Notes under the pieces: model-generated | What the model was told of the DNA's origin: nothing | Databases searched by the model: none | Seen by the model: the letters and a program-made list of their open reading frames with translations, nothing else | Assembly (NCBI GenBank): GCA_050011875.1 | Contig: JBEKIG010000002.1 | Location: 1 to 64,000, forward strand | Direction of reading: 5' to 3' | DNA: 64,000 nucleotides | From: Nitrososphaeria archaeon | GTDB lineage: Archaea; Thermoproteota; Nitrososphaeria; JACIWG01 | In this document: positions 25,191 to 64,000 of the stretch, piece by piece | Layout: each line of letters starts with the position of its first letter | Numbering within the stretch: the first letter of the stretch is position 1 | Translations under genes and position numbers: made by a program

Positions 25191-26228
25191 ATGTCTATTC
25201 GTGTTGCTGTATACGGCCTTGGTCCTATAGGTATCTTAATAGCTAAAGAAACCCTAAAGAAAAAGGATTTAAATCTTGTTGCAGCGTTTGACATCGACCC
25301 ATTGAAAATTGGCAAAGATTTAGGAGACATCCTTGGAATAGAAGAGAAAATAGGAATATACGTTGATGATGATGCTAACGCGTTGCAGACTCTAAAGAAC
25401 AGCGGCGTAAAGGTAGTTTTACATTCAACGTCAACCTACCTAGATAAAAATTATGCCCAAATCGTCAAATGTGTTGAAGCAGGTGCAAATGTTATTTCAA
25501 CATCTGAAACACTTTCAAACCCGTGGTTTCGCTACCCAGAGCTTGCAACACTTCTTGATGAGCTAGCTAAAAAATATTGTACTTCTATAATCGGAACTGG
25601 AATCAACCCTGGGTTCATCTTTGACACTCTTCCCATAGTCATGACTTCTGTATGCACTGAAGTCAACAGCATTCACGTCACAAGGTCTCTTGACGCTTCA
25701 AAGAGAAGATATTCATTCCAAAAGAAATATGGTTTAGGTTTAAAAGTTGATGACTTTAAAGATAAAATAGAAAAAGGAGAATTAACCGCTCACACAGGTT
25801 ATAGTGAATCGATCAATTTGATAGCTAACGCGTTAGGTGTCAACCTAGATAAAATCATTGAAGGACAAGAGCCCCTGATCGCTAAGAAGGATATGAAAAC
25901 ACAATTTTTCAATATTAGAGAAGGTCAAGTTTCCGGTATACACGGTTTTGGAGTTGGCTTACTTAATGGTGAAGAATTTATCAAAATCGAACTTTCTGCT
26001 GAAGTAGACGGGATTGAGTTTGAAGAAGTTACAATTGAAGGTACTCCACCTATAAAATGGAGGAGCTCGGGAATCTCCGGTGATATCGCCACGGCAGCTA
26101 TGGTAATAAACATGATTCCGAAGATACTCACCTCAAAACCTGGCTTACGCCGTATGTGCGATATTCCGTACCCATCTGCCTTTTTGAGTTTGGAAAATTC
26201 AATTAAGGAAGAGGATCGACCTGCTTGA
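25191..26228 (+). CDS. 2,4-diaminopentanoate dehydrogenase/DapB-like NAD(P) oxidoreductase
   Basis: YGLGPIG Rossmann, GTGINPGF.FD.LP, GD.ATAA...N.IP. Confidence 0.75.
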   Translation: MSIRVAVYGLGPIGILIAKETLKKKDLNLVAAFDIDPLKIGKDLGDILGIEEKIGIYVDDDANALQTLKNSGVKVVLHSTSTYLDKNYAQIVKCVEAGANVISTSETLSNPWFRYPELATLLDELAKKYCTSIIGTGINPGFIFDTLPIVMTSVCTEVNSIHVTRSLDASKRRYSFQKKYGLGLKVDDFKDKIEKGELTAHTGYSESINLIANALGVNLDKIIEGQEPLIAKKDMKTQFFNIREGQVSGIHGFGVGLLNGEEFIKIELSAEVDGIEFEEVTIEGTPPIKWRSSGISGDIATAAMVINMIPKILTSKPGLRRMCDIPYPSAFLSLENSIKEEDRPA

Positions 26229-27526
26229 ACTACATTAGGAAAACAGCCTTATCAAGGAATTTATTCGAAAAGGCAAGAAAATATATTCCTGGTGGATCAG
26301 CTTATGCAATTAGATATTTCGAACCCTATCCTTTCTACGTTAAAAGGGCATTGGGGAGTAGAATTTGGGATGTCGACGATAACGAGTACATAGACTTTTG
26401 GACTGTTCATTTCGCAGCGATTTTTGGACACGGTTATGCACCGGTAATGTCGGCTGTTAAGGAACAACTTGATTTAGGTGCTCACTTTGGATGGTGCAAT
26501 GAATGGGAAGTGAAATGGGCTGAAAAAGTATGTGGCTGGTTCAGAGCTGACAAAGTAAAACCGGCTAACAGCGGTACAGAATCCAACATGTACGCTATTA
26601 GCCTAGCAAGAGCTTACACAGGAAAGAAGAAGGTTGGTAAGATGGAAGGAGGATGGCATGGGGGATTCGATGGATTAAATAGAGCTGTCAATTATCCTTA
26701 CAACCAACCTTCCAATATGAATCCAACTTCAACAGAAGACATAATACCTCTACCTTTTAACGATCTCGACGGTTTAATCAAGAAGGTTTCGCAAGAGGAA
26801 TTGGCTTGCATAACAGTTGAACCGATGTTGGGTTCAGCTGGAGCTATTCCAGCTAAAAAAGAGTTTCTCAAGGGTTTAAGGGAATTCTGTGATAAAAAGA
26901 GTGTCGTACTCATTTTTGACGAAGTTATTACAGGATTCCGTCATCCAGGTGGGCTCCAACAGCACTTTGGCGTAAAACCCGATTTGACAACAATGGGTAA
27001 GACAGTGGGTGGACAGTATTTTGCTGGAGCCGGAGGCATCTGTGGACGATCAGAAATAATGGATTTGCTTGACCAAACTCGAAGGAAGGATTTTTGGGAG
27101 CGTCCAGCTCATGGAGGAACATACGTTGGTAACGCGGTAACAATGAGAGCAGGATATGTCACGATATCGGAGCTCGAAAGACAAAGAGACAAAGTATACA
27201 AACATATAGATTCACTAGGCGAATATGGTAGAAAAAGATTCACTGAGATCATGGAAGAAAACAGATTTGAAGCCTACATCACTGGTATATGCTCGATGTT
27301 TGGGCTTCATTTTACGAAAGAAATTCCAATAAACGGTGAAACAGCAGAAAGGACAAAGGATAAAAAATTATGTAGCGATCTATTTGCTTATTTGATACAA
27401 AATGGTATCGCATATCTGACGCCGAAATCACCACATTTTGCTGTTTCAAACGCTCATAAAAAAGAAGATTTAGATTATTTATCGACTAAAGTTAAAGAAT
27501 TCATAAAAAGCAAGAAGGAGCGGTAA
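26225..27526 (+). CDS. Class III PLP aminotransferase (GSA aminomutase-like)
   Basis: G.RIWDVD.NEYID, NSGTE, LIFDEVITGFR, PDLTTMGK. Confidence 0.85.
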   Translation: MNYIRKTALSRNLFEKARKYIPGGSAYAIRYFEPYPFYVKRALGSRIWDVDDNEYIDFWTVHFAAIFGHGYAPVMSAVKEQLDLGAHFGWCNEWEVKWAEKVCGWFRADKVKPANSGTESNMYAISLARAYTGKKKVGKMEGGWHGGFDGLNRAVNYPYNQPSNMNPTSTEDIIPLPFNDLDGLIKKVSQEELACITVEPMLGSAGAIPAKKEFLKGLREFCDKKSVVLIFDEVITGFRHPGGLQQHFGVKPDLTTMGKTVGGQYFAGAGGICGRSEIMDLLDQTRRKDFWERPAHGGTYVGNAVTMRAGYVTISELERQRDKVYKHIDSLGEYGRKRFTEIMEENRFEAYITGICSMFGLHFTKEIPINGETAERTKDKKLCSDLFAYLIQNGIAYLTPKSPHFAVSNAHKKEDLDYLSTKVKEFIKSKKER

Positions 27527-27626: not shown

Positions 27627-28265
27627 TTGTCAGAAGTTGGAGAACAGATTATAAAAGCTATAAAAGAACTTGTGGAACAAAAAATATTATTCGCTAAGGG
27701 TGGGAACTTGAGTGCGAGATATGGTAAGGAACAACTAATTGTAACCTCGTCTGGAAAGGACTACTCTACAGTCAAAGCAGATGACCTGGTCATAACAGAT
27801 TATGAGGGTAAGATAATTAAAGGCGAAAAGAAACCTTCTTCAGAGCTGCCGCTGCACTTAGCAATATACAAACGTAGGTCAGATGTTCAATCAATTATAC
27901 ATACACATGCAATATGGCCTTATATTCTTTCGGTATGTCATCGCAGTCTACCTGCCGTCTCAGATGAATTCACGATCCTATTAGGTGGCGAAATAAAAGT
28001 CTCAGAATATAAATTCCTTGGAACAAAAGACTTGGGAGATAGTGTGGCAGAGGCCTTAGGTATGAATAACGCCGCCTTGATAGCAAACCACGGCTGCGTA
28101 ACAGTCGGTAGAAGTGTAGAAGAAGCATTAGAGAACATGGTGGTCTTGACAAATTTCTCAAAGATCTATGTGCTCGGAAGCATCTTCGGCAAAGTCTACC
28201 CACTACCTGATTGGGCGATTGAAAAGGAAAAAGAACTCTATAACAAAATGTTCGGTCAGAAATAG
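27627..28265 (+). CDS. Class II aldolase/adducin family (FucA/AraD-like)
   Basis: GGNLSAR, PSSE..LH..IY, IIHTH, NHG. Confidence 0.9.
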   Translation: MSEVGEQIIKAIKELVEQKILFAKGGNLSARYGKEQLIVTSSGKDYSTVKADDLVITDYEGKIIKGEKKPSSELPLHLAIYKRRSDVQSIIHTHAIWPYILSVCHRSLPAVSDEFTILLGGEIKVSEYKFLGTKDLGDSVAEALGMNNAALIANHGCVTVGRSVEEALENMVVLTNFSKIYVLGSIFGKVYPLPDWAIEKEKELYNKMFGQK

Positions 28266-28550
28266 ACCTTTTTCATTCCTTTTTATATATCTACTTTTAT
28301 TGTTTCTTTCATTTGTTAATATAATCTTCTAACATCAGAGTAAACTGATTGCCGCATACAAAATCCCAAAAAAGAATTCAAAGATGTGTAAATGTCTGAT
28401 AAGTATAAACTTTGGAAGTTTCGCAATATTAGATGTTTTATCAGATTGTTCGCTAAATAAGATCTTATCGTCTAAAGTACTGAGCAAGATTTTTTTATTA
28501 AGAAAAGGTTAACAACAAGAATTTTTTAAAAGTTCTTCTTTAGCTGATCT

Positions 28551-29999
28551 TCAAAGAATTTCAGCTAAAGACTTGATGATGGCTTTGTATTCTTCAGCAA
28601 GCTTATCGTAGACTCCTTTTTTCTCAGGGTTTGGCTTAAATTTTGCCTTGAACTTCACCGATTCGCTCACTAATTCGTTTAAGTCACATCCTTTAGTTCC
28701 CCATACTGCTAAAATAGCGGATCCAAGAGCGGAATCCGGTTCTTCTACGGCTTTTGTCTCTTTTCCTGTAGCGTCGGCTATTATCTGCATTAAAAGTGTA
28801 TTCTTAGAAGCGCCACCACAAATTCTTAAATCATAAAAGTTTGTTCCAGTTACTTCTTCAACTGCCGAAAGCATTGTTCTCAAGGTTATAGTACTGCCCT
28901 CTAAGAGGCTTCTAAATATGTGTCCAGCAGTCATGTTTTTTTCGTTCATACCTATCAAGAAACCTTTAACGTTAGGATAAGTCTTCGGTACTCTTACGCC
29001 AAACCATTCTGTGCAGGCCATCAGACTATCCGACCCTGCAGGAACATTTTTTGCTAATTCCGTTAACTCATCCAGATTTGTTTTCAGAAGCCTACTCATC
29101 GAATCAAATGCTACTGAGCCTGCGTTAGTGAATCCACCTGCGAGATACGTGTTGTTAACATAAGTTTTATAATAAAATCTTCCATTTACGTCAGGTATAA
29201 TTTTATCAACGATCGCATGAAGTGTTAAAGACGTTCCAATAGTAACATTAACCTGGCCAGCATTTAAGGAACCTGAGGTTACATCACCTGCACTCGCGTC
29301 TGTAATGCCATTGACGATAGGTATGTCTTTAGGTAAACCCAACTTGGATGCCTCTTCACTTGTATAGCCGACTATTGAGCCAATCTGTTTAACTTCCGGC
29401 ATAATTTCTATCGGTATTTCCACATCTTTGTAAATATCCTCCAAATATCCTTCCCCCTGCAGTAAGGCATGTGCTTTACCTGCAGTATTAGAAGACGTTA
29501 CAGCTATTCCACAAAGTTTATAGACTATATAGTCGCTCTCATGTAGTACTTTGTATGTTTTGCTAAACCCCTCAAAATTATCCTTTAGCCAAATAAGCTT
29601 AGGTATAACAAGCTGAGGAAGTAGAGGCAAGAACTTTTCAAAATCTACGGCCGCCTGGCTTCTTAGTCTCAGCTGTTCTACCCCATTTTTTCCTCTACTA
29701 TCATTGTACATTATTAGATTATATAATTCATTTCCGTCTTTGTTGATTAAACCTATTGTTCCACTTGTCGCGTCAACACAAAGGCCAGAAACTTGATTCA
29801 ATAACTTTAACTGAGTTAGAGCTTCCTTAGTTCTTTCCCATATCGCTTTTGCACTTCTTTCCGAAAACCCTTCTCTAGGTTGAATCAATAGATCATACAC
29901 GGGTACACTAGACTTCTCAAACACTTCTCCTTTGCTCGATATTATCGTAGCTTTTATATTCTTGGTACCAATGTCCAATCCAAGATAGAGTTCGGACAT
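28551..29999 (-). CDS. FGGY-family carbohydrate kinase
   Basis: LGLDIGT..IK, MYND.R, GTS, GGAS.N....Q..AD, ALGSA. Confidence 0.9.
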   Translation of the reverse strand: MSELYLGLDIGTKNIKATIISSKGEVFEKSSVPVYDLLIQPREGFSERSAKAIWERTKEALTQLKLLNQVSGLCVDATSGTIGLINKDGNELYNLIMYNDSRGKNGVEQLRLRSQAAVDFEKFLPLLPQLVIPKLIWLKDNFEGFSKTYKVLHESDYIVYKLCGIAVTSSNTAGKAHALLQGEGYLEDIYKDVEIPIEIMPEVKQIGSIVGYTSEEASKLGLPKDIPIVNGITDASAGDVTSGSLNAGQVNVTIGTSLTLHAIVDKIIPDVNGRFYYKTYVNNTYLAGGFTNAGSVAFDSMSRLLKTNLDELTELAKNVPAGSDSLMACTEWFGVRVPKTYPNVKGFLIGMNEKNMTAGHIFRSLLEGSTITLRTMLSAVEEVTGTNFYDLRICGGASKNTLLMQIIADATGKETKAVEEPDSALGSAILAVWGTKGCDLNELVSESVKFKAKFKPNPEKKGVYDKLAEEYKAIIKSLAEIL

Positions 30000-30116
30000 T
30001 AAAGAAGCACTTTAAAAAAAGAGGTTACGACCATATTTAAGCTTTATAGGCGCCCCTGTGTAAATCAAAAAAGTAAATATATATAAGGATGGAACAAGTT
30101 TTCTTGGTGTATTTCG

Positions 30117-31412
30117 ATGTCTGAAGAGAATTTGAATGTTTTTACAGCGGTTACCGAGGAAGTCGATCCTGAAAAGAATGTTGTCGCTACCTATTACGTT
30201 GAAGGAAGAGACATTTCAATCGATGAGGCTGGCGTGAAGATTGCTGCTGAAGAATCTATTGGTACATGGACTCAAGTTTCAACTGCAACAGAATGGATCG
30301 TTAAGAATCTTCCAGCAAAAGTATTCGAACACAAGTTAGAGAATAAAAACACAGGAATAATAAAGATAGCTTACCCAAATATCTTGTTTGATTTTGAGAC
30401 AGGAGGTATTCCTAATATATTGAGCATCGTTGCAGGCAACCTTTTTGGTTCAGGTTCACTTCAAAACGTTAGACTCGTAGATATTCAATTTCCCAAGGAG
30501 GCCGTGCTATCTTTTAAAGGTCCAAAATTCGGAATCGAAAACATTAGGAAGATCGTAGGCACCGTCGAAAGCAGAAGACCACATCTTGGAACGATTATCA
30601 AACCTAAGGTAGGCCTTAGTCCAAAAGAAACGGCTAAGGTGGCATACGAAGCCGCAATAGGAGGAGTGGACTTTATCAAGGACGATGAAACGTTAACGAA
30701 TCAAAAGTTCTGCCCACTGGATGATAGAGTAAGTAATGTTATGGAAGCGCTTGATAAAGTTAAGTCTGAAACAGGTAGAACTGTTCTCTACTCTCCTGAT
30801 ATAACCGCTGAGACTTATAGAATGCGGGACCTGGCTCAGGTTGCGCTGGACCATGGAGCTAATGCCCTTATGGTAGACTTTCTACCTTCCGGTTTCTCAG
30901 CTGTAAGACTGCTTGCTGAGGACCATTCTATAAAAGTGCCTATACATGTGCACAGGTGCATGCATGCTGCGATGACTAGAAATCCTAAACATGGCATCGC
31001 CATGATGGTGCTGGCGAAGCTTGTGCGTTTAGCTGGAGGTGATCAACTACACACCGGAACTGTTGCCGGAAAGATGGGTGGAAAAGAGAAAAAGGTCGAG
31101 GAACTAATTGCAATGAACAACTTCTTGAAAGGGGAATTCTATGGTTTGAAGACGACGTTCCCTGTCGCTTCAGGGGGGGTTCATCCATCCGTTGTTCCGA
31201 TAAACGTTCTCACACTTGGTAAAGATATTGTGATTCAAGCAGGAGGTGGAATTCATGGCCATCCAAATGGCACTAGGGCAGGCGCAGTTGCAATGAGGGA
31301 TGCTATAGATGCGGTGACAAAGGGTATTCCTCTAGAAGAATACGCGAGAGATCACAAGGAACTCTACGTGGCTATACAGCATTGGGGAATGAAATTCGTT
31401 ACAGAAGAATAG
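30117..31412 (+). CDS. rbcL: Rubisco large subunit, form III-like (or closely related Rubisco-fold enzyme)
   Basis: AAEESIGTW, AGNLFG, IKPKVG, DFIKDDE, HVHR, DQLHTGT.AGK, ASGG, QAGGGIHGHP. Confidence 0.75.
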   Translation: MSEENLNVFTAVTEEVDPEKNVVATYYVEGRDISIDEAGVKIAAEESIGTWTQVSTATEWIVKNLPAKVFEHKLENKNTGIIKIAYPNILFDFETGGIPNILSIVAGNLFGSGSLQNVRLVDIQFPKEAVLSFKGPKFGIENIRKIVGTVESRRPHLGTIIKPKVGLSPKETAKVAYEAAIGGVDFIKDDETLTNQKFCPLDDRVSNVMEALDKVKSETGRTVLYSPDITAETYRMRDLAQVALDHGANALMVDFLPSGFSAVRLLAEDHSIKVPIHVHRCMHAAMTRNPKHGIAMMVLAKLVRLAGGDQLHTGTVAGKMGGKEKKVEELIAMNNFLKGEFYGLKTTFPVASGGVHPSVVPINVLTLGKDIVIQAGGGIHGHPNGTRAGAVAMRDAIDAVTKGIPLEEYARDHKELYVAIQHWGMKFVTEE

Positions 31413-31462
31413 AATATCCTCTCATTTTCAAAACCTTATAAACAATCAAACTTACTAATTGA

Positions 31463-32527
31463 GTGATACTAATGGTAGACTATTTCGGTAAGGTCGATTC
31501 AAATGAACTTTACAATTTCTGTGTTGACATCTTTTCGAAGGCTGGTGTTCCAAAAGAAACCGCAGAAATTGTTTCTGAACACTTGGTCACAGCTAATCTA
31601 AGAGGTGTTGATTCGCATGGCGCCTTTGTAAGGGTTCCCTACTACATAACAGCTCTACGTGAGGGGATAATTAATCCCAGACCTTCAATCAGATCTGTTA
31701 AAGACACACCAAGTGTTACGTTAATAGATGGGGATAAAGGTTTTGGACCTGTAGTAGCCATGAAGGCGACGGAAATGGCTATTAGCAAAGCTAAGAGCTC
31801 AGGCATCTGTTTTGTTGGTGCGAAGAACATAAGCCACGTAGGGATGTTGGCACGATATTCTCTTAAAATTGTCGAAAAAATGATGATTGGAATGGCTGCT
31901 ACAACTTCGCCCCCCGTAGTAGTTCCATGGGGTGGAACTAAACCTGTCTTTGGAACAAATCCTTTTACCATCGGTTTTCCAATAGACGATAAATCTTCGA
32001 TAATTGTTGATATGGCTACAAGTACTGTTGCTGCAGGAAAGATAGCTGTATTCGCCTCTAAAGGAGAAAAACTTCCTGAGGGATGGGCTCTTGATAAATA
32101 CGGTAACCCTACGACAGATCCGAAGGTTTTTTTGGATAAAGGTATTCTCCTTCCATTCGGAGGATACAAAGGTTATGGGCTGTCTTTAAGTGTAGAAATT
32201 TTTGCTGGACTGCTAACAGGATCACCTTTTAGTTCACATATACAAAGGGGCTGGGCGACACAAGGAGGTTTCGTTGTTCAAGTGATAAACATAGATTCTT
32301 TCAGAGAGTATGCTGACTATAAAAAAGATATTTTGGAGCTGGTTCAGATGATTAAGTCAACCCCACCTGCAGAAGGATTCAAAGAAGTCCTATTACCTGG
32401 GGAACCTGAACAAAGAGAATATGTAAGAAGGAAAATGGAAGGTGTGCCTGTCTACAAAGATTCCTGGGAAAACCTTGAGAAAGTTTCGAAGGAGATGCAG
32501 ATCAACCTTCCAAACCTCATAAAATAG
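31463..32527 (+). CDS. Ldh_2 family oxidoreductase (ComC/AllD/YiaK-like)
   Basis: A.LRGVDSHG, GTNP, DMATS, GGYKGYGL, LPGEPE. Confidence 0.9.
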   Translation: MILMVDYFGKVDSNELYNFCVDIFSKAGVPKETAEIVSEHLVTANLRGVDSHGAFVRVPYYITALREGIINPRPSIRSVKDTPSVTLIDGDKGFGPVVAMKATEMAISKAKSSGICFVGAKNISHVGMLARYSLKIVEKMMIGMAATTSPPVVVPWGGTKPVFGTNPFTIGFPIDDKSSIIVDMATSTVAAGKIAVFASKGEKLPEGWALDKYGNPTTDPKVFLDKGILLPFGGYKGYGLSLSVEIFAGLLTGSPFSSHIQRGWATQGGFVVQVINIDSFREYADYKKDILELVQMIKSTPPAEGFKEVLLPGEPEQREYVRRKMEGVPVYKDSWENLEKVSKEMQINLPNLIK

Positions 32528-32600
32528 GCATCCTGTCTAGTTTCTTTCAATATCAAATCTAAACTTTAAATAAATATCGCATATTAGAAAAGCGATAGGT

Positions 32601-33407
32601 TTGAGGAAGAATAAACTAAGGGAGCTAATAAGAGAAGATAAGCCTACAATCGGCACCAGAATACTCAGCTCTTGGCCCGGAATAGTTGAAATAATAGGTC
32701 AAACGGGAGTAATAGACTACTTCGAATTCATAGCCGAATATGCGCCTTGGACTCTGAACGACTTAGAAAACCTTGCTAGGGCAAGCGAATTATACGATAT
32801 AAGTTCTATGATAAAACTTGACGCAATACCAAGAAGTTATATAGCTGCAAAAGCTTTACAATCAGGCATCCAGAATTTTCTCTTTTCAGATATTAGGACA
32901 GTCAACGATGCAGAAGAGGCTGTAAAGTCTATAAGATTAGAACCTAAGGGAATCATGGGGATAGGCAACTTTAGGGTAGGTGGATATCTGTTCACAAACT
33001 GTACTGTCGCAGATTACAGAAAAGCGGCTGATGATTCAATAATCGCATTTATGGTAGAGAAAAAAAGTGCTGGAGACCGCTTAGAAGAAATCTTATCAGT
33101 TAAAGGATTAGATATGGTCCAATTTGGTCCGTGGGATTATGGCTTAAGCATGGGACTATCCGGCGCACCTGGCACACCGTGGGCTTTAAATGAACCAAAA
33201 GTCAAAGAAGCTGAACTAAGAACAATACGGACTGCATTAAAACTGGGCCTGCGTCCGAGAGTAGAAATAGGTGATGTGAAAGATATAGAAAAGTACCTAG
33301 AGCTTGGCGTAAAAGATTTTAGCCTGGGGACGGACATAAGAATATTGTTCGGTTTCTGGAAAGAGAATGGAGCTGAATTAAAGAAGATTTTAAACAAAAT
33401 GAAGTAA
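32601..33407 (+). CDS. HpcH/HpaI-family aldolase
   Basis: N.L....EY.PW...MVEK...I.SVKGLDMVQFGP.DYGLS. Confidence 0.8.
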   Translation: MRKNKLRELIREDKPTIGTRILSSWPGIVEIIGQTGVIDYFEFIAEYAPWTLNDLENLARASELYDISSMIKLDAIPRSYIAAKALQSGIQNFLFSDIRTVNDAEEAVKSIRLEPKGIMGIGNFRVGGYLFTNCTVADYRKAADDSIIAFMVEKKSAGDRLEEILSVKGLDMVQFGPWDYGLSMGLSGAPGTPWALNEPKVKEAELRTIRTALKLGLRPRVEIGDVKDIEKYLELGVKDFSLGTDIRILFGFWKENGAELKKILNKMK

Positions 33408-37320: not shown

Positions 37321-38226
37321 GTGGGAAATATGATATGCAAATACTGTCTATCTGAATCGGTCAAACCAGCTGGTTCAATGGATGGAAGGAAACTTGTAAG
37401 ATGCAATGTATGTAATCGCAGATTCTTTGAAAATGATAAACTTCCAAAGATGAGAAGTAAAAAATATGTTATAGTATCAGCTATTTCCATGTATTTTGAT
37501 GGTCTTTCAGTTAGGAAGACCTCGAGACAATTAGAAAGCATCTTTGGAGAGAAGGTAAGCCAAGTAACTATCTGGAAGTGGGTTCAAAAATACTCGAAGA
37601 TTGTAAGCGAATATGTTAGGACGTTAACCCCTAACCTTTCAGGTAAATGGCATCATGACGAAACAGTAATTAGTTGCGATGGAAGAAACCAGTGGTTCTG
37701 GGAGATGATAGACGAAGACACAAAGTTTTTAGTGGCGTCCCACATATCACAAGACAGAACAATCGAAGATACAGTTGAAGTATTCTCGAAAGCTATGGAG
37801 ATGGCAAAGCAGAGACCTAACGTCCTATTCGTTGACGGTTCACACGCCTACGATAGAGCCTTCAATAAAGTCTTCTACACAAGATACAAGGCAAACAAGG
37901 TTGAATTAGTTAAGAAAGTTGGGATAAGAGCAAGGGAGACAAATAACATAGTTGAAAGACTACATGAGACACTGAAGGAAAGAACAAAGATAATGCGTGG
38001 ATTCAAAAACCAAGATTCAGCAAAGCTAATACTGGAAGGATATGTAGTAAACTATAATTTCGCAAGACCACACCTAACCCTTAAAGGGAAAACACCAGCC
38101 GAAGCAAGCGGAATAGAAGTTAAAGGATGGAAACAGCTAATCGAAAACGCAATTCAATCCGAGAATATAGGGGCGCAACCTCAAACACAGAGAAAAGCAG
38201 TCGAAGTTATGCAGGTGGTTCGATGA
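37321..38226 (+). CDS. IS6-family DDE transposase with N-terminal zinc ribbon and HTH (start probably ATG 37330)
   Basis: CxxC...CxxC, GLSVRK...VS..TIWKWV, WHHDET, FVDG..AY, NN.VER.H..LK.R, GFK. Confidence 0.93.
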   Translation: MGNMICKYCLSESVKPAGSMDGRKLVRCNVCNRRFFENDKLPKMRSKKYVIVSAISMYFDGLSVRKTSRQLESIFGEKVSQVTIWKWVQKYSKIVSEYVRTLTPNLSGKWHHDETVISCDGRNQWFWEMIDEDTKFLVASHISQDRTIEDTVEVFSKAMEMAKQRPNVLFVDGSHAYDRAFNKVFYTRYKANKVELVKKVGIRARETNNIVERLHETLKERTKIMRGFKNQDSAKLILEGYVVNYNFARPHLTLKGKTPAEASGIEVKGWKQLIENAIQSENIGAQPQTQRKAVEVMQVVR

Positions 38227-51357: not shown

Positions 51358-52878
51358 ATGCCTTTAAAGGTAAAAATACTTGATATTCTTTCTGGGAAAA
51401 GGGCTATCATTCTAAACAAGTCGGACGCTGATCATATTGGAGTAGAGCTGCTTGATCGAGTTAAAGTAGTTCATGAAAATAAAACCATTACTGCAATCGC
51501 GGAGATAAGCGAGGACCTAAAGCTTGTCCCTCGAGGGCAAATAGGGTTCTATAAAGAGATTGCCTCAGAGATAGGCGCATTAAATGGTGAACAAGCCGAT
51601 GTTTCTTTAGCGAAGACGCCTATGTCTGTAACTTACATTAGGAAGAAGGTTAAGGGAAAGACTCTTCTCCCCGAAGAAATAGAAAGTATCTTACAGGACA
51701 CAGTTGCATTGAACCTGAGTGAATTAGAGATAGCCGCCTTCCTGCTTGCCCAAGAATTTTATGGAATGAATATGGATGAGGTAGAAGCTTTGACTAAGGG
51801 TATGATAAAAACTGGCAACGTTCTTGAACTGCCAGGTAAGGTCGTCGACAAACATTCTATTGGAGGAGTACCTGGAAACAAGGTGTCTTTACTTATCGTA
51901 CCTATAATAGCTTCGACAGGATTATATATACCTAAAACGTCTTCAAGAGCAATAACAAGCCCTTCGGGAACAACTGATACAATGAGTGTTTTAGCTAACG
52001 TTGAATTTTCAATTGAAGAACTAAGAAAGATTGTCATGAAAGTTGGAGGATCAATTGTTTGGGGTGGTGCGTTAAATTTAGCGCCGACAGACGATATTTT
52101 CATTAGAGTTGAGCATCCGCTTAGCATAGATCCCAAATCACAAATGCTGGCGAGTATCATTTCAAAAAAGGCTGCGGAAGGTATTTCCTGCCTCGTTCTA
52201 GACCTGCCGACTGGAAAGGGAGCTAAAGTTGAAACAGCCGCACAGGCTAACTCTCTAGCGGCTGATTTTGTAGAGTTAGGTAAACGACTAGGCATAACGG
52301 TCAGGTGTGGAATAACATATGGCGGTCAACCTATAGGACGGGCTATAGGACCCGCGCTGGAAGCAAGTGAAGCACTTAACGCGCTGATAAACCCAGAAGA
52401 AGCATCAAAAAGTCTTGTAGGTAAATCAACAGCATTAGCTGGAATACTGCTAGAGCTTACGGGATTAGCTGAAAAGGGTCAGGGTGAAGGGATGGCAATG
52501 GAGATACTTAGAAACGGTAAAGCGTACAATAAATTTAAAGAAATAATTGAAGCACAGGGAGGAAATCCGAACATAAAGCCTGATATGATACCTATAGGAA
52601 AAAACTCATATCAGATAATTTCAGAAACCGATGGTTACGTTACTTATGTCGATAACCAAGTAATAAACGATGTCGCGCGTGCCGTCGGCGCTCCTATGGA
52701 AAAAGGTTCGGGAATTATACTTCACGCAAAACAAGGATACAAAGTTGAGAAAGGACAGGTTTTAATGGAAATCTTTGCCGAGAGAGCGACAAAGTTACAG
52801 GAGGCTCTTTCTATATGCAACTATGAAAAACCCATTTTAGTCGAAAGTATGTTGCTGTCAACTTATCCTGTTTACTAG
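51358..52878 (+). CDS. deoA: AMP phosphorylase (archaeal thymidine phosphorylase family)
   Basis: N-terminal extension, DKHSIGGVPGNK, PKTSSRAITSP.GT.D, QPIG..IGP.LEA. Confidence 0.92.
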   Translation: MPLKVKILDILSGKRAIILNKSDADHIGVELLDRVKVVHENKTITAIAEISEDLKLVPRGQIGFYKEIASEIGALNGEQADVSLAKTPMSVTYIRKKVKGKTLLPEEIESILQDTVALNLSELEIAAFLLAQEFYGMNMDEVEALTKGMIKTGNVLELPGKVVDKHSIGGVPGNKVSLLIVPIIASTGLYIPKTSSRAITSPSGTTDTMSVLANVEFSIEELRKIVMKVGGSIVWGGALNLAPTDDIFIRVEHPLSIDPKSQMLASIISKKAAEGISCLVLDLPTGKGAKVETAAQANSLAADFVELGKRLGITVRCGITYGGQPIGRAIGPALEASEALNALINPEEASKSLVGKSTALAGILLELTGLAEKGQGEGMAMEILRNGKAYNKFKEIIEAQGGNPNIKPDMIPIGKNSYQIISETDGYVTYVDNQVINDVARAVGAPMEKGSGIILHAKQGYKVEKGQVLMEIFAERATKLQEALSICNYEKPILVESMLLSTYPVY

Positions 52879-60258: not shown

Positions 60259-61434
60259 GTGTCATATTTGAAAATATCAGAGGTTAAAGCTCTAATTTCA
60301 AAACCTCCACGTTCTTTTGTTTTTGCTAGAGTAATGACAAGCGATGGAATCGTAGGTTACGGTGAAGCAGCATCGGATGGTGCGCCAGAAGTACATGCGG
60401 AGAGCATAAACACTCTAGGAAAAACTATAATTGGCATGGATCCTTTCAACACCGAACTAGCCTATTATACAATGGACAATGCCTTCTTTGGCTGGAATCC
60501 GGAAGCAACCATGCGCGCAACAGGCGCAATAGACGAAGCCTTATTTGATATTAAAGGTAAAGCGTTGAAGACACCAGTCTATAACCTGCTCGGTGGAAAA
60601 TTTCGGGATAAAGTGAAGTTATACTGCCATATCGTGCTAAGGCCAGGAGAGAAAGCTACTCCTGAAACTGTTGCAGAAGGCGCTGTACGCCAAGTTAAAC
60701 TTGGTTTTAGAGCAGTCAAGTTCGACCCTTTCACAACAGTCATGCGAAGTGATATGAATGAGAAGGAGATAGGTTTCGTCTCAATACCTCAGGGAATGAA
60801 TTTTTCCCATGAGCTGACGTTTAAAGCTCTTGAAATGGTGAAGTCGGTAAGAGAAGCCATCGGACCTAAAGTCGATCTGATGCTAGATATTCATGGTAGA
60901 TTCGATGTCGAATCAGCGATAAGAATAGGGAAAAAACTTGAACCATTCGACCTTCTCTTCTACGAAGAGCCTATTCCACCCACTAATGATGAACTTCTCG
61001 CCTACGTACGTAAAAAAGTAGATGTACCGATCTGTGTAGGTGAAAGAAGATATACGTTGGAAAGTTTTAGAAGATTATTTGCACTTAATGCAGCGGATAT
61101 AATTATGCCAGACCACTCTAGGAATGGTGGCATAACGTGGGTGAAGAAGATAGCGGACATGGCTCAAACTTATTTTGTTCCGGTCGCACCTCATGTTGTC
61201 TTCTCCAGCCCTCTAAACGCTGTAATCAGTGCTCAGAACATGGTTTCTATCCCAAACTTCCTAATTCACGAATCCATGGGTCCTCAAAGACTTAAACTCT
61301 ACAAAGATGTTTTAAAGCCAAACGTATTACCTGAAGATGGTTACATTAAAATTTCAGACAGACCCGGTCTAGGCGTTGAACTGAATGAAGAGAGCCTTGA
61401 AATTGAATATGATGAGAGCCTGATTGGATTATAA
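60259..61434 (+). CDS. Mandelate racemase/galactonate dehydratase-like enolase-superfamily enzyme
   Basis: G..GYGEA, ID.AL.DIKGKAL..PVY.LLGG, K.D, D.HG, EEP, GER, APH, PGLG. Confidence 0.9.
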   Translation: MSYLKISEVKALISKPPRSFVFARVMTSDGIVGYGEAASDGAPEVHAESINTLGKTIIGMDPFNTELAYYTMDNAFFGWNPEATMRATGAIDEALFDIKGKALKTPVYNLLGGKFRDKVKLYCHIVLRPGEKATPETVAEGAVRQVKLGFRAVKFDPFTTVMRSDMNEKEIGFVSIPQGMNFSHELTFKALEMVKSVREAIGPKVDLMLDIHGRFDVESAIRIGKKLEPFDLLFYEEPIPPTNDELLAYVRKKVDVPICVGERRYTLESFRRLFALNAADIIMPDHSRNGGITWVKKIADMAQTYFVPVAPHVVFSSPLNAVISAQNMVSIPNFLIHESMGPQRLKLYKDVLKPNVLPEDGYIKISDRPGLGVELNEESLEIEYDESLIGL

Positions 61435-61956
61435 TCTCATCCTCTGATTTTGTCCCCCTTTAGAAGCCCTATTGTAACGTTTCAATCCACTTATTCTGAG
61501 AACTGAATATAATTTTTTAAGATCGACATTAGTTTTTGCAGTAATATCTTTTATTAACGCGCCTTCCTTATACAACTCGATTGCCTTGTTTAACGCTTTA
61601 ATACTGTCTTCTCTGCTCCTTTTAACAAATTTTAACTTCCAATTAAGAAAACAATTTTTAAATTTTTCAAAGTCCTTAGACTTTGCCAGTGGAGGATTAA
61701 TGGAGAAGAAATCGATAATCGGCTTTAACTCATCATATTTTGTCACAGAATAGACGTAAATTGCATTATGTGTGACTCTTTTTGGTTTAAGGACGGAAAT
61801 CTTTCCAACCCCGAAAAAAGCCTGAATCCTTCTGATTATAATATTGTTCTTGCTTGTCACAAAAAATTTAGGATAGTAATGATTATGCGACAATATTATA
61901 GAAAAACTTCCTTGACCATCGACAAATCCGACAACATAGTCTGGAGAGATGTCCAT
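61429..61956 (-). CDS. Single-motif LAGLIDADG-domain protein with C-terminal HTH
   Basis: YVVGFVDGQGSF, I..FFGVG.I, II.FF...P....K..DF..F; C-terminal AIELYKEG..IKDI.......LYS.L. Confidence 0.8.
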   Translation of the reverse strand: MDISPDYVVGFVDGQGSFSIILSHNHYYPKFFVTSKNNIIIRRIQAFFGVGKISVLKPKRVTHNAIYVYSVTKYDELKPIIDFFSINPPLAKSKDFEKFKNCFLNWKLKFVKRSREDSIKALNKAIELYKEGALIKDITAKTNVDLKKLYSVLRISGLKRYNRASKGGQNQRMRL

Positions 61957-62030
61957 TATACGGTTCTCAACAATTCCTAAATAATTAAATCTTTCTAGGA
62001 TATAAAAGAAGACTCTGTGTATTAAAATTT

Positions 62031-62348
62031 CTATTGACCTTGCCTTCTTTTTATTTCAGATATCGCTTTTGTAAGTGTTAGCTTGGCAATAGAACGTGGA
62101 GATATGTTAAACTGGTTATAGAGCCGATTTATCATCGACGGCAATATGAATGATACACCGTAGCCGAAGATGTTAGCGAGAAAAACCTCGAAGTCCTCTA
62201 TATGATCCGCCAACTCTTCTTCTTCTCTTAAGTTGTTGCTGCTCATGAACTTGTATATGATCGCATTCTTTGCATTTTCCCCTAAGAATGATAAGCTATA
62301 GTTTATTACCTATACAACCTTAACTTTAGTTTGGGAGTCAAGTATCAT
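62031..62348 (-). pseudogene. DUF3227/NitrOD5-like small helical protein with in-frame TAG
   Basis: MILDSQTKVKVV*VINYSLSFLGENAKNAIIY...F...L..IFG.G...I...LY; single TAG at 62310-62312 joins two ORF-track frames. Confidence 0.55.
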
Positions 62349-63112
62349 CCTTATTGCACACCAAATCAATTTGTTATCATAAAGACAAATTTTATATAAC
62401 AAAGCAAAATTTTGATAACCAGCAGTAAAGAAAAAATTAATCAAGAAATTGTCCAGCAGATAATATAAGTTATTCCTCCAAAATTCCCTGAATGGGCCAT
62501 TTGATGATGTAGACACCATGGTATAAACATAAAAAACTAGGCAATCATAGAAATTGGCAAATCCTACTTAAATCCGCCAAGCAAAAATGAACAGGTGCAT
62601 TTCAGCAGCAAATTATTATAAAAACCTTCTACCTCTAAAATAGTTGGATTTTTATTGACAAATAATAATGATGTTTTCCTGTCACCAAAACTAAAAAATC
62701 AATTAGACCCATATGACATGAACCTATCACTAAGTGCCAATAGCGTCAAAGCACCCCCATGTCATGACAGGAGCCTTATCGTGGACGATAAATCGATAGA
62801 AACTTATCATAAATTATAAAATTAAGCTCTGATAATAATGTGCTCTATTAATTTGTTTAATTTGTACCTTAAAACTCACTTTTTCATAACCAATAATTTG
62901 TTATCAAGTTTGATATCAAGCTTGAATAATTAAGACAATTGCCAGAATAAAAAATAAGATAATTTTGCACTAATGTCTTCTTCCTTTTCGACTCTTAAGC
63001 CATTTGTCCAATACTTGATATCATCTTATTTGCAAATTCCCACATCTTTTGGCACTGCATCAAATGATTGTTCGTCGTTTATTTGAACTACATTTTTTCT
63101 ATAAAATAGAGG

Positions 63113-64000
63113 TTAGGTTCTAAAGACGATGTGTACTTTGTTTCCTGTTGGGTCGGTTTTCTTTAGGTATGCTAACTTGAAGCCTGGCGCGATTATTGGC
63201 TGTTTAAGTTCGATGTCTTTTTCTTTTAGGTAGTTGTATGCGGCTTCAAAATTTGACACGTTTATTGCTATGTGTGTTCGTGTTTCCTTTTCATACACTT
63301 TCATGACTTCTATTTTTCCAATACTTGTCCCTGTTAGCATTATCGACGATGGCCCTTCTTCTTTTGCGAAGCCAAAGGTTTTAGTGTACCAGTCAGCTAT
63401 TTGCGTAGCATTTGCGGTTTCTGTTGGATATATTGCTATATGTTCAACGCCTAAAAATATGGATGTGCCTTTTGCTTCTCGTATCCATTGCAAGCATTCT
63501 TTAGTCTTCTCTTTTATTGTTTGGAAGTCTACTGGTTTAACTAAGTTTTTGACTATCAGGTTTGAGCCCAAGTTTATTGCTGCCGCGCCCGCTCTTATCC
63601 AACTTGAAATGCCTTCCTTTGTGGCTTCTACGCCTCCTGAGGGCATAAGTTTTAGCCATGGAAATGGGCCGAGCAAGTCTTTTATAAATTGCGGGCCTAG
63701 TACGTCTGCTGGAAATATTTTGATTATGTCAGCGCCCATCTCTTCTGCCATGGATATTTCTGATGGAGTACTGCATCCTGGAATATATAATGTATTGTAT
63801 CTATTACATGTCTTTGCCACATCTGCGTTGAATATAGGTCCCACGATAAAGTTTGCTCCACAATTGATGTAGAGTGAGGCTGCTGATGGCTCGACTATTG
63901 TGCCAGCTCCTAGGATGAAGTCTGGAAACTCTCTATCCTTCCATTTTACTAGTTCGCTAAAGACTTGATATGCTAATGCGCCGCGGTTTGTGAACTCAAC
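63113..64000 (-). CDS. eda: KDPG/KHG aldolase fused to C-terminal VOC (glyoxalase-like) domain; 5' end outside the window
   Basis: EFTNRG, GAGT, GANFIVGP, PGC.TPSEI..A...G...IKIFP, MPSGGV; VOC motifs EHIAI...WY...FG, HIAI.V, DP.GN. Confidence 0.88.
   Translation of the reverse strand, partial: VEFTNRGALAYQVFSELVKWKDREFPDFILGAGTIVEPSAASLYINCGANFIVGPIFNADVAKTCNRYNTLYIPGCSTPSEISMAEEMGADIIKIFPADVLGPQFIKDLLGPFPWLKLMPSGGVEATKEGISSWIRAGAAAINLGSNLIVKNLVKPVDFQTIKEKTKECLQWIREAKGTSIFLGVEHIAIYPTETANATQIADWYTKTFGFAKEEGPSSIMLTGTSIGKIEVMKVYEKETRTHIAINVSNFEAAYNYLKEKDIELKQPIIAPGFKLAYLKKTDPTGNKVHIVFRT

Follow-up and report, generated by a model that had tools for sequence, protein, structure and literature searches.

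According to an excerpt of its published description (PMC5241800), the reductive hexulose-phosphate pathway of methanogens combines an archaeal phosphoribulokinase (PRK) with a form III Rubisco, the carboxylase acting on ribulose-1,5-bisphosphate (RuBP), and an excerpt on haloarchaea (PMC9700705) describes a pentose-bisphosphate pathway of the non-carboxylating kind, with a RuBP phosphatase, a FucA-type ribulose-1-phosphate (Ru1P) aldolase and a glycolaldehyde reductase. Here, we analyse a Rubisco large-subunit gene (positions 30117–31412, plus strand, 431 aa) and its neighbours in the first 64,000 nucleotides of contig JBEKIG010000002.1 from a Nitrososphaeria archaeon, a stretch that we call the window. 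An earlier note on this DNA had described the gene as a form III-like Rubisco embedded in a sugar-acid catabolic cluster, together with a divergent FGGY kinase, a class II aldolase, an Ldh_2 dehydrogenase and an HpcH aldolase, and had offered two alternatives: a near-canonical Rubisco repurposed as a keto-sugar-acid decarboxylase or hydrolase, or a new sugar route leading to RuBP. The five genes all stand intact at the positions given, as judged from the open reading frame (ORF) list, Pfam and NCBIfam. Our analysis suggests that the Rubisco gene probably codes for a genuine form III RuBP carboxylase, serving as the last step of the archaeal AMP/pentose-bisphosphate pathway. Its pairing with the FGGY kinase is real and conserved, and that kinase is the sole neighbour whose conservation extends beyond the family.

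Results

To place the window Rubisco (Pfam RuBisCO_large 266 bits, RuBisCO_large_N 97 bits) among its relatives, we collected 101 Rubisco-family ORFs, from 80 genome loci, 20 regions of same-class genomes and the second copy in the genome itself. Removal of two duplicates, one repeat of the second copy and two fragments left an alignment of 97 rows including the window. Alignment positions follow a residue list, spinach numbering and residue roles (carbamylated K201, loop-6 K334, the phosphate sites) that we take to be the established ones. The window Rubisco shows no departure from the canonical residue at any of the 19 positions checked (E60, T65, W66, N123, K175, K177, K201, D203, E204, H294, R295, H298, H327, K334, S379, G380, G381, G403 and G404), leaving K201, K175, K177, H294, H327, the loop-6 lysine and both phosphate sites intact, in line with what the earlier note had read for the main active-site residues. 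The motifs EESIGTW, KDDET and GKMGG, which it had quoted as deviations, are indeed found in the translation, but they are usual in the form III clade described below (28, 42 and 14 of its 61 rows, respectively) and do not set this protein apart.

Comparison with known structures agrees with this pattern. The best matches in the Protein Data Bank (PDB) are 2cwx (340 bits) and 6hun (339 bits), with 8dht and 1geh next, down to 311 bits; all four are titled 'Ribulose bisphosphate carboxylase'. The scores of other Rubisco entries do not exceed 257 bits, nor those of Rubisco-like proteins 210 bits. We take 1geh and 2cwx to be the archaeal form III enzymes of Thermococcus kodakarensis and Pyrococcus horikoshii.

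With IQ-TREE we built a quick tree of the 97 rows, rooted on four Bacillaceae rows, which appear Rubisco-like by their residue pattern and which we read, tentatively, as MtnW-type. The window Rubisco falls inside a 61-row form III clade (SH-aLRT 98), 58 of whose rows carry all 19 canonical residues, and more finely inside a subclade of 30 rows (support 84) that it shares with Thermofilum, Bathyarchaeia, Methanomethylicia and one Freyarchaeota row. It nests, in other words, with ordinary archaeal form III enzymes, in a tree that holds no named form I or II sequences.

The gene order around related Rubiscos points in the same direction. Pfam annotation of the neighbours of 14 related loci (72 proteins) showed Rubisco lying between ribose-1,5-bisphosphate (R15P) isomerase and AMP phosphorylase in four Methanomethylicia-type loci (L012, L017, L019 and L026; 56–62% identity). 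The order in the first three is a phosphoribosyl-pyrophosphate (PRPP)-synthase-like gene, an IF-2B-family gene, Rubisco and a Glycos_transf_3 gene, while in L026 an aminotransferase replaces the PRPP-synthase-like gene. With NCBIfam models, the flanking genes score 392–419 bits as R15P isomerase (cut-off 314) and 670–706 bits as AMP phosphorylase (cut-off 535). At a fifth locus, L015, the R15P isomerase alone lies beside Rubisco. A separate observation concerns a Thermofilum metagenome-assembled genome, where a sugar-isomerase-like gene (L011, 7970–9379) directly adjoins a form III Rubisco; it has a Fucose_iso_C domain and reaches 186 bits on the sulfoquinovose isomerase model (cut-off 700), and gives a further case, within this subclade, of a sugar gene next to Rubisco.

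The partner genes of the AMP pathway are also present in the genome from which the window comes. An AMP phosphorylase gene lies ~20 kb downstream of Rubisco in the window (51358–52878, plus strand; TIGR03327 649 bits, cut-off 535), and an R15P isomerase gene is found on contig C9 (TIGR00511 401 bits, cut-off 314). The genome, at a completeness of 97%, contains no match to the PRK family (PF00485), and none was detected in five other genomes carrying an FGGY–Rubisco pair (0/6 in all). AMP phosphorylase exceeds its cut-off in all five of these, and an intact R15P isomerase does so in four. The genome further contains a full-length transketolase match (459 bits) and a ribulose-phosphate 3-epimerase match (113.5 bits), for which most relatives have weak matches only. 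In the sister genome G005, an R15P isomerase homologue (contig C12:202101–203011) is split by a TAG codon into parts scoring 203 and 190 bits. The split could stem from faulty assembly or mark a disrupted gene in a genome that has retained its Rubisco. Together, the complete residue set, the form III clade, the operons of relatives, the partner genes and the lack of a PRK match make the window protein most likely an ordinary RuBP carboxylase rather than a repurposed decarboxylase.

Contig C1 carries the second gene of the Rubisco family (433 aa) at 188493–189728 (locus L002 1474–2775, minus strand). In the 97-row alignment it carries the substitutions K177N, G380A and G381A; the form III model gives it 308 bits, and in the tree it lies beyond the form III clade, at the end of a very long branch. 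Next to it are genes for a DUF362 protein, for an EamA transporter and for PurF, PurD and a PurK/T-like protein of purine synthesis, and a partial counterpart is present on contig C10 of G005. Its substitutions suggest that it is probably a Rubisco-like protein, as yet uncharacterised. As to whether the genome holds another canonical form III gene, the window Rubisco is the only complete Rubisco, accompanied by this one divergent paralogue.

The same data bear on the first alternative of the earlier note, in which Rubisco would have been recruited to decarboxylate or hydrolyse a phosphorylated keto-sugar acid supplied by the Ldh_2 dehydrogenase and the FGGY kinase. The idea draws on gene order, since the Ldh_2 and HpcH genes lie directly downstream of Rubisco in the window and in G005, and within ~4–5 kb of it in genome G037 and locus L132. 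The residues for RuBP binding and carboxylation are nevertheless all retained, whereas several are lost in the Rubisco-like rows of the same alignment, and models for Rubisco-like (form IV) proteins fall well below their cut-offs (OiaX, 198.6 versus 700 bits; MtnW, 296 versus 409 and 250 versus 514 bits). Searches with the window neighbours (tblastn) found Ldh_2 and HpcH near Rubisco at none of the 80 genome loci. FGGY proteins that do adjoin Rubisco-like proteins, at three loci (L100, L061 and L065), fall outside the clade of the window kinase, and these three loci lend no support to viewing the window as a variant of a module that joins a Rubisco-like protein, an FGGY kinase and an aminotransferase. 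In addition, a TATA-like box, read by eye, stands in each of the short spacers preceding the Ldh_2 and HpcH genes, which suggests separate promoters for both. Because the active site is intact and relatives are encoded in R15P isomerase/Rubisco/AMP phosphorylase operons, this alternative is contradicted, and we regard it as highly improbable.

We then considered the FGGY-family kinase (28551–29999, minus strand, 482 aa; Pfam FGGY_N 102.7 bits, FGGY_C 71.9 bits), which is transcribed away from Rubisco. The two genes are separated by an A+T-rich spacer of 117 nt (30000–30116) with TATA-like boxes on both sides, which by eye may be promoters; inspection by eye of this spacer revealed TATA-like boxes only and no conserved operator. 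Both FGGY domains are present, and at least 18 of 19 orthologue rows retain DxGT, D234, GT and GG; we presume that these motifs serve ATP binding, with D234 as the catalytic aspartate. The description of this kinase as divergent is well founded, as it is the weakest of ten FGGY_N matches in the genome (104.9 versus 146–239 bits). Its best NCBIfam match, the XylB model TIGR01312, gives 229.1 bits against a cut-off of 380.25, and the fuculokinase model 68.6 bits against 471. The kinase also differs from its genome paralogues at positions aligning with glycerol kinase residues that are, we assume, sugar-binding. As for those paralogues, the ten FGGY genes of the 2.6-Mb genome comprise one glycerol kinase, one XylB-grade xylulokinase (556.7 bits, separate from the window kinase) and one AI-2-kinase-like gene, with the rest under all curated cut-offs.

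In a tree with the nine other FGGY genes of the genome, the kinase orthologues form a clade of their own (SH-aLRT 99), which a partial FGGY at locus L009, again divergent from Rubisco, joins on a long branch (support 97). At E ≤ 1e-40 the clade comprises 53 protein clusters, in which every organism name given is archaeal, and homologues are named 'xylulokinase' or 'sugar (pentulose or hexulose) kinase' in their sources. Homologues of both proteins were also seen in Candidatus Hodarchaeota, namely Rubisco P0061 (64% identity) and kinase P0159 (42%); the longest contig for both measures 34,714 nt, and an Asgard archaeon might carry the two on a single contig. A further kinase homologue, P0164, comes from Jordarchaeia.

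The kinase and Rubisco genes co-occur across genomes. Of 301 genomes sampled from the class, 52 have a Rubisco match and four have an FGGY orthologue (E ≤ 1e-60); all four have Rubisco, with both genes adjacent. Across 401 genomes of the phylum, orthologues (E ≤ 1e-70) occur in 11, from families f1 (that of the window), f23, f48, f61 and f30, and every one of the 11 has a Rubisco, compared with a background of 148/401.

At the level of gene order, a metagenome scan for the kinase yielded 15 loci, one of which is the window's own DNA. Once identical kinase sequences had been removed, 21 loci other than the window, each with an orthologue at 54% identity or more, could be compared. The kinase is a divergent, direct neighbour of Rubisco in 13 of them (spacer 81–787 nt), is divergent with two ORFs in between in one (L028), and is convergent with a 12-nt gap in another (L139); two contigs are cut at the relevant end, and four loci (L118, L123, L130 and L140) have no Rubisco in the available flank. 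A form III Rubisco thus lies within 2.8 kb of the FGGY orthologue, usually in divergent orientation, in 15/19 informative loci, and the genomes of the other four carry a Rubisco elsewhere. These loci are not independent: most stem from a single family named Nitrososphaeria and a single genus of Bathyarchaeia, and some are near-duplicates. The adjacency holds at 54–67% kinase identity and 56–81% Rubisco identity across two classes. In the Bathyarchaeia loci, genes for a GH42 glycosidase and a xylulokinase-like FGGY (386 bits, cut-off 380) come after that of Rubisco, which fits a pentose context. Full-text searches found no literature linking FGGY kinases with form III Rubisco, matches for FGGY plus RuBisCO being all on plants.

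Such a pairing could arise without direct metabolic meaning, through inherited or co-transferred gene order or shared regulation in a sugar island, with the kinase as an ordinary pentulose or hexulose kinase in an organism rich in FGGY kinases. The ten FGGY genes, the source names of the homologues, a remaining neighbourhood that varies even inside the family, and supporting loci that come from essentially two or three lineages are all compatible with this explanation. It accounts less readily for a pairing that persists at the identities given above, in two classes, and survives both the reorientation in L139 and the two-gene insertion in L028, or for a kinase clade found only in Rubisco-bearing genomes (11/11). 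On balance, we consider it possible but doubtful.

The kinase could instead make RuBP or its immediate precursor directly, as a PRK analogue (a non-homologous ribulose-5-phosphate 1-kinase) or a ribulose-1-phosphate 5-kinase, opening a second, sugar-fed entry to Rubisco beside the AMP pathway. Rubisco would still act as a carboxylase, and the sugar would come from free pentuloses or, in family f1, from glycolaldehyde and dihydroxyacetone phosphate (DHAP) joined by the FucA-type aldolase, and be burnt to 3-phosphoglycerate with no need of the AMP pathway. Several observations agree with such a role: Rubisco within 2.8 kb at 15/19 informative loci (13 divergent and direct, one with two ORFs between, one convergent), the divergent arrangement recurring with the distant clade member in L009, a Rubisco in 11/11 kinase genomes against 148/401, a small clade (53 clusters) with archaeal names throughout, six of six genomes without a PRK-family match, and the GH42 and xylulokinase-like genes following Rubisco in Bathyarchaeia. 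The aldolase, moreover, resembles the haloarchaeal Ru1P aldolase family, at 131 bits on NF053831 and so under its cut-off of 300. Against it, the genomes with the pair also possess AMP phosphorylase and R15P isomerase (the latter intact in 4/5 others), 4/19 informative loci have no Rubisco in the flank, the aldolase does not travel with the kinase, and the supporting loci, near-duplicates among them, come from few lineages. We also know of no FGGY kinase that acts on a sugar phosphate. A kinase of this kind therefore seems unlikely to us. The second alternative of the earlier note, a new sugar route to RuBP, is a possibility on which the data point both ways: the genome has the ordinary feed from AMP, but its FGGY kinase is a conserved neighbour of this Rubisco type beyond the family.

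The aldolase gene (27627–28265, plus strand, 212 aa; Pfam Aldolase_II 157 bits) encodes a FucA-type class II, DHAP-dependent enzyme. Its best PDB matches are the L-fuculose-phosphate aldolases 4c24 and 6btd, and GGNLS, PSSE, HTH and NHG align with FucA structures, in which we take the histidines to bind Zn, Glu73 to be catalytic and GGN to bind phosphate; the equivalent of Tyr113 is not retained. All curated FucA, AraD and Ru1P-aldolase models stay under their cut-offs. The aldolase neighbours Rubisco and the kinase in family f1 only, and none of the ten non-f1 genomes with the kinase has a homologue at E ≤ 1e-35. On this count, a universal three-step route from aldolase through kinase to Rubisco was rejected, and a version run by the aldolase (glycolaldehyde and DHAP to Ru1P to RuBP) could hold at most in family f1. 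A second aldolase–FGGY pair exists in the genome at contig C3:171717–173817.

Downstream of Rubisco follow an Ldh_2-family 2-hydroxyacid dehydrogenase gene (31463–32527, plus strand; Pfam Ldh_2 393 bits), sulfolactate/malate dehydrogenase-like, and a divergent HpcH/HpaI-family pyruvate aldolase gene (32601–33407, plus strand; Pfam HpcH_HpaI 49 bits). The former matches the archaeal sulfolactate/malate dehydrogenases 2x06 (250 bits) and 1v9n (247 bits) far better than YiaK structures (100 bits), and the latter reaches 84 bits on the HpaI model (cut-off 369) and 65 bits with PDB 7et8. With an Ldh_2 protein closest to sulfolactate/malate dehydrogenases and weakly YiaK-like, the label 'sugar-acid catabolic cluster' was overstated. 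The analogy with the Escherichia coli yiaK–lyxK–sgbH–sgbE operon does not carry over either, as the YiaK model NF009750 gives 147 bits against 316 and no SgbH-type gene occurs among the annotated neighbours. Upstream, by Pfam and NCBIfam, lie a 2,4-diaminopentanoate-dehydrogenase-like gene (25191–26228, plus strand) and a class-III aminotransferase gene (26225–27526, plus strand).

Conservation of this wider neighbourhood is restricted to the family. At the 80 loci, an aldolase was found near Rubisco in one (L008, 69% identity) and an FGGY orthologue (54–66%) in four (L007, L008, L028 and L031). Window-type Rubiscos (at least 79% identity) occur in the class sample only in f1 itself, in G005, G009, G025 and G037. 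The gene order of G005 is that of the window. G009 has, in this order, the dehydrogenase, the aminotransferase, the FGGY gene and Rubisco, and lacks the aldolase, Ldh_2 and HpcH. In G025 (locus L132), the Rubisco–FGGY pair stands beside a second FGGY, a 2-hydroxyacid dehydrogenase and the aldolase, with Ldh_2 and HpcH ~3.7 kb beyond the kinase. G037 has the dehydrogenase, the aminotransferase, an ORF without a Pfam family and Rubisco, then Ldh_2 and HpcH ~1.7 kb further on, and its locus includes neither FGGY nor aldolase. Ldh_2 is near Rubisco in f1-type loci only (G005, G037 and L132), always together with HpcH. The dehydrogenase-like gene and the aminotransferase are retained upstream of Rubisco in G005, G009 (L007), G037, L129 and L133; an aminotransferase of 45% identity adjoins Rubisco at L139. 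The aminotransferase of L100, a locus with a Rubisco-like protein, is only 24% identical.

Since these parts recur in shuffled order within the family, the 'cluster' is better described as a family-level island. Conservation of the whole five-gene cluster was rejected, with Ldh_2 and HpcH absent from all 80 loci and recurring only in G005, G037 and L132. Of the neighbourhood, the FGGY kinase is kept beyond the family, while Ldh_2, HpcH and the aldolase accompany Rubisco in its own family only. In this variable sugar-utilisation island, Ldh_2, HpcH, the FucA-type aldolase, the aminotransferase and the amine dehydrogenase keep company with Rubisco at the level of the family, and need not be linked to it in any other way. 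Set against the three conditions under which the earlier note would have been refuted, the outcome is mixed: the protein does nest in ordinary form III, it is the only complete Rubisco but has a divergent Rubisco-like paralogue, and its neighbourhood is partly conserved.

Further downstream of the five-gene region, Pfam and NCBIfam detect a LonB-like protease and, ~4 kb from the cluster, an IS6-family transposase (37321–38226), which adjoins two ORFs of 448 and 422 aa with little or no family assignment. Near the end of the window (60259–63844) there are an MR_MLE enolase-superfamily dehydratase-like gene, a LAGLIDADG endonuclease ORF (61429–61956, minus strand) and a partial KDPG/KHG aldolase match. 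The ORF with this match (63113–63844, minus strand) covers the C-terminal half only of the aldolase model and is possibly an aldolase gene interrupted or truncated near the homing endonuclease.

Discussion

From these comparisons we infer that the window Rubisco is a carboxylase at the end of the AMP/pentose-bisphosphate pathway. In this scheme, AMP phosphorylase (51358–52878) would make ribose-1,5-bisphosphate, R15P isomerase (contig C9) would convert it to RuBP, and Rubisco would add CO2 to RuBP to yield two molecules of 3-phosphoglycerate. The three genes are dispersed in this lineage, with Rubisco placed inside a variable sugar-utilisation island, and the FGGY kinase may be of the pentulose type, directing carbon from free sugars into the same pathway. 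The pairing may reflect known steps that turn the product of an ordinary pentulose kinase into RuBP, plain inherited order or, most boldly, a RuBP-making kinase.

Several points weigh against this assignment. The window Rubisco scores 448.2 bits on TIGR03326 (type III ribulose-bisphosphate carboxylase), below the cut-off of 497.45, so that the annotation rule does not apply to it, and a second NCBIfam Rubisco model is also missed (427.2 versus 438 bits). As the tree contains no named form I or II sequences, it is the operon context of relatives, together with the PDB ranking and the NCBIfam scores, that underlies the designation 'form III'. The AMP phosphorylase and R15P isomerase genes are both in the genome, but neither adjoins Rubisco. 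Finally, the AMP pathway alone does not explain why one FGGY clade stands beside Rubisco in two or three lineages, once reoriented (L139).

Regarding the first of these points, TIGR03326 is likewise missed by the Thermofilum enzyme (443.9 bits) and by the operon-encoded Methanosuratincola enzyme (434.4 bits). The shortfall is a trait of the whole subclade and of the model cut-off, not of the window Rubisco alone, and it is because of these scores that relatives are named only 'RuBisCO large subunit C-terminal-like domain-containing protein'. The cut-off under-calls an entire subclade of real-looking form III enzymes. A complete form III Rubisco beside sugar genes, as seen here, is no evidence of a new function.

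It is improbable, in our estimate, that the archaeal FGGY clade represents a non-homologous PRK replacement or a ribulose-1-phosphate 5-kinase producing RuBP straight from a pentulose phosphate. Were this true, PRK-less archaea of the Bathyarchaeia and Nitrososphaeria type would catabolise free pentoses via a nucleotide-independent, CO2-adding Rubisco shunt, which in this family glycolaldehyde and DHAP would also enter via the FucA-type aldolase. An FGGY partner feeding RuBP would mean that the phosphoribulokinase step had been solved a second time, by an unrelated enzyme, and would show how anaerobic archaea living in peat and hot springs use Rubisco to burn free pentoses.

Among known systems, bacterial fucK–fucA and rhaB–rhaD pairs combine an FGGY ketose 1-kinase with a class II aldolase. 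The window resembles them in its tail-to-tail FGGY kinase and FucA-type aldolase, as does the pair on C3, but the kinase is far from the fuculokinase model, and outside f1 its partner is Rubisco and not an aldolase. Rubisco-like proteins of form IV (the MtnW enolase, and OiaX/OiaC of apionate catabolism) belong to the same superfamily as the window Rubisco; in the Rubisco-like rows of our alignment K177, H298, H327, K334 or other residues are lost, whereas the window retains them all, and the Rubisco-like look in this genome belongs to the C1 paralogue.

The haloarchaeal pathway, as far as the excerpt of PMC9700705 describes it, likewise places a FucA-type class II aldolase next to pentose-bisphosphate-pathway genes, and the window aldolase matches the corresponding NF053831 model, though under its cut-off. 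Those haloarchaea lack Rubisco, according to the same excerpt, whereas the window has one, and the aldolase is a Rubisco neighbour in f1 only. In the methanogen pathway, as excerpted from PMC5241800, an archaeal Rubisco that works outside the Calvin cycle receives its RuBP from a kinase, a likeness that would extend to the window if its kinase fed RuBP; unlike there, the window genome and the five other genomes with the pair have no PF00485 match, and the window kinase belongs to the unrelated FGGY family. The form III Rubiscos of the AMP pathway (1geh and 2cwx) differ from the window enzyme in that its pathway genes are dispersed, its conserved neighbour is an FGGY kinase and its score lies just under the NCBIfam cut-off. 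They are nonetheless its best PDB matches, and it has in common with them the full residue set and both partner genes in the genome.

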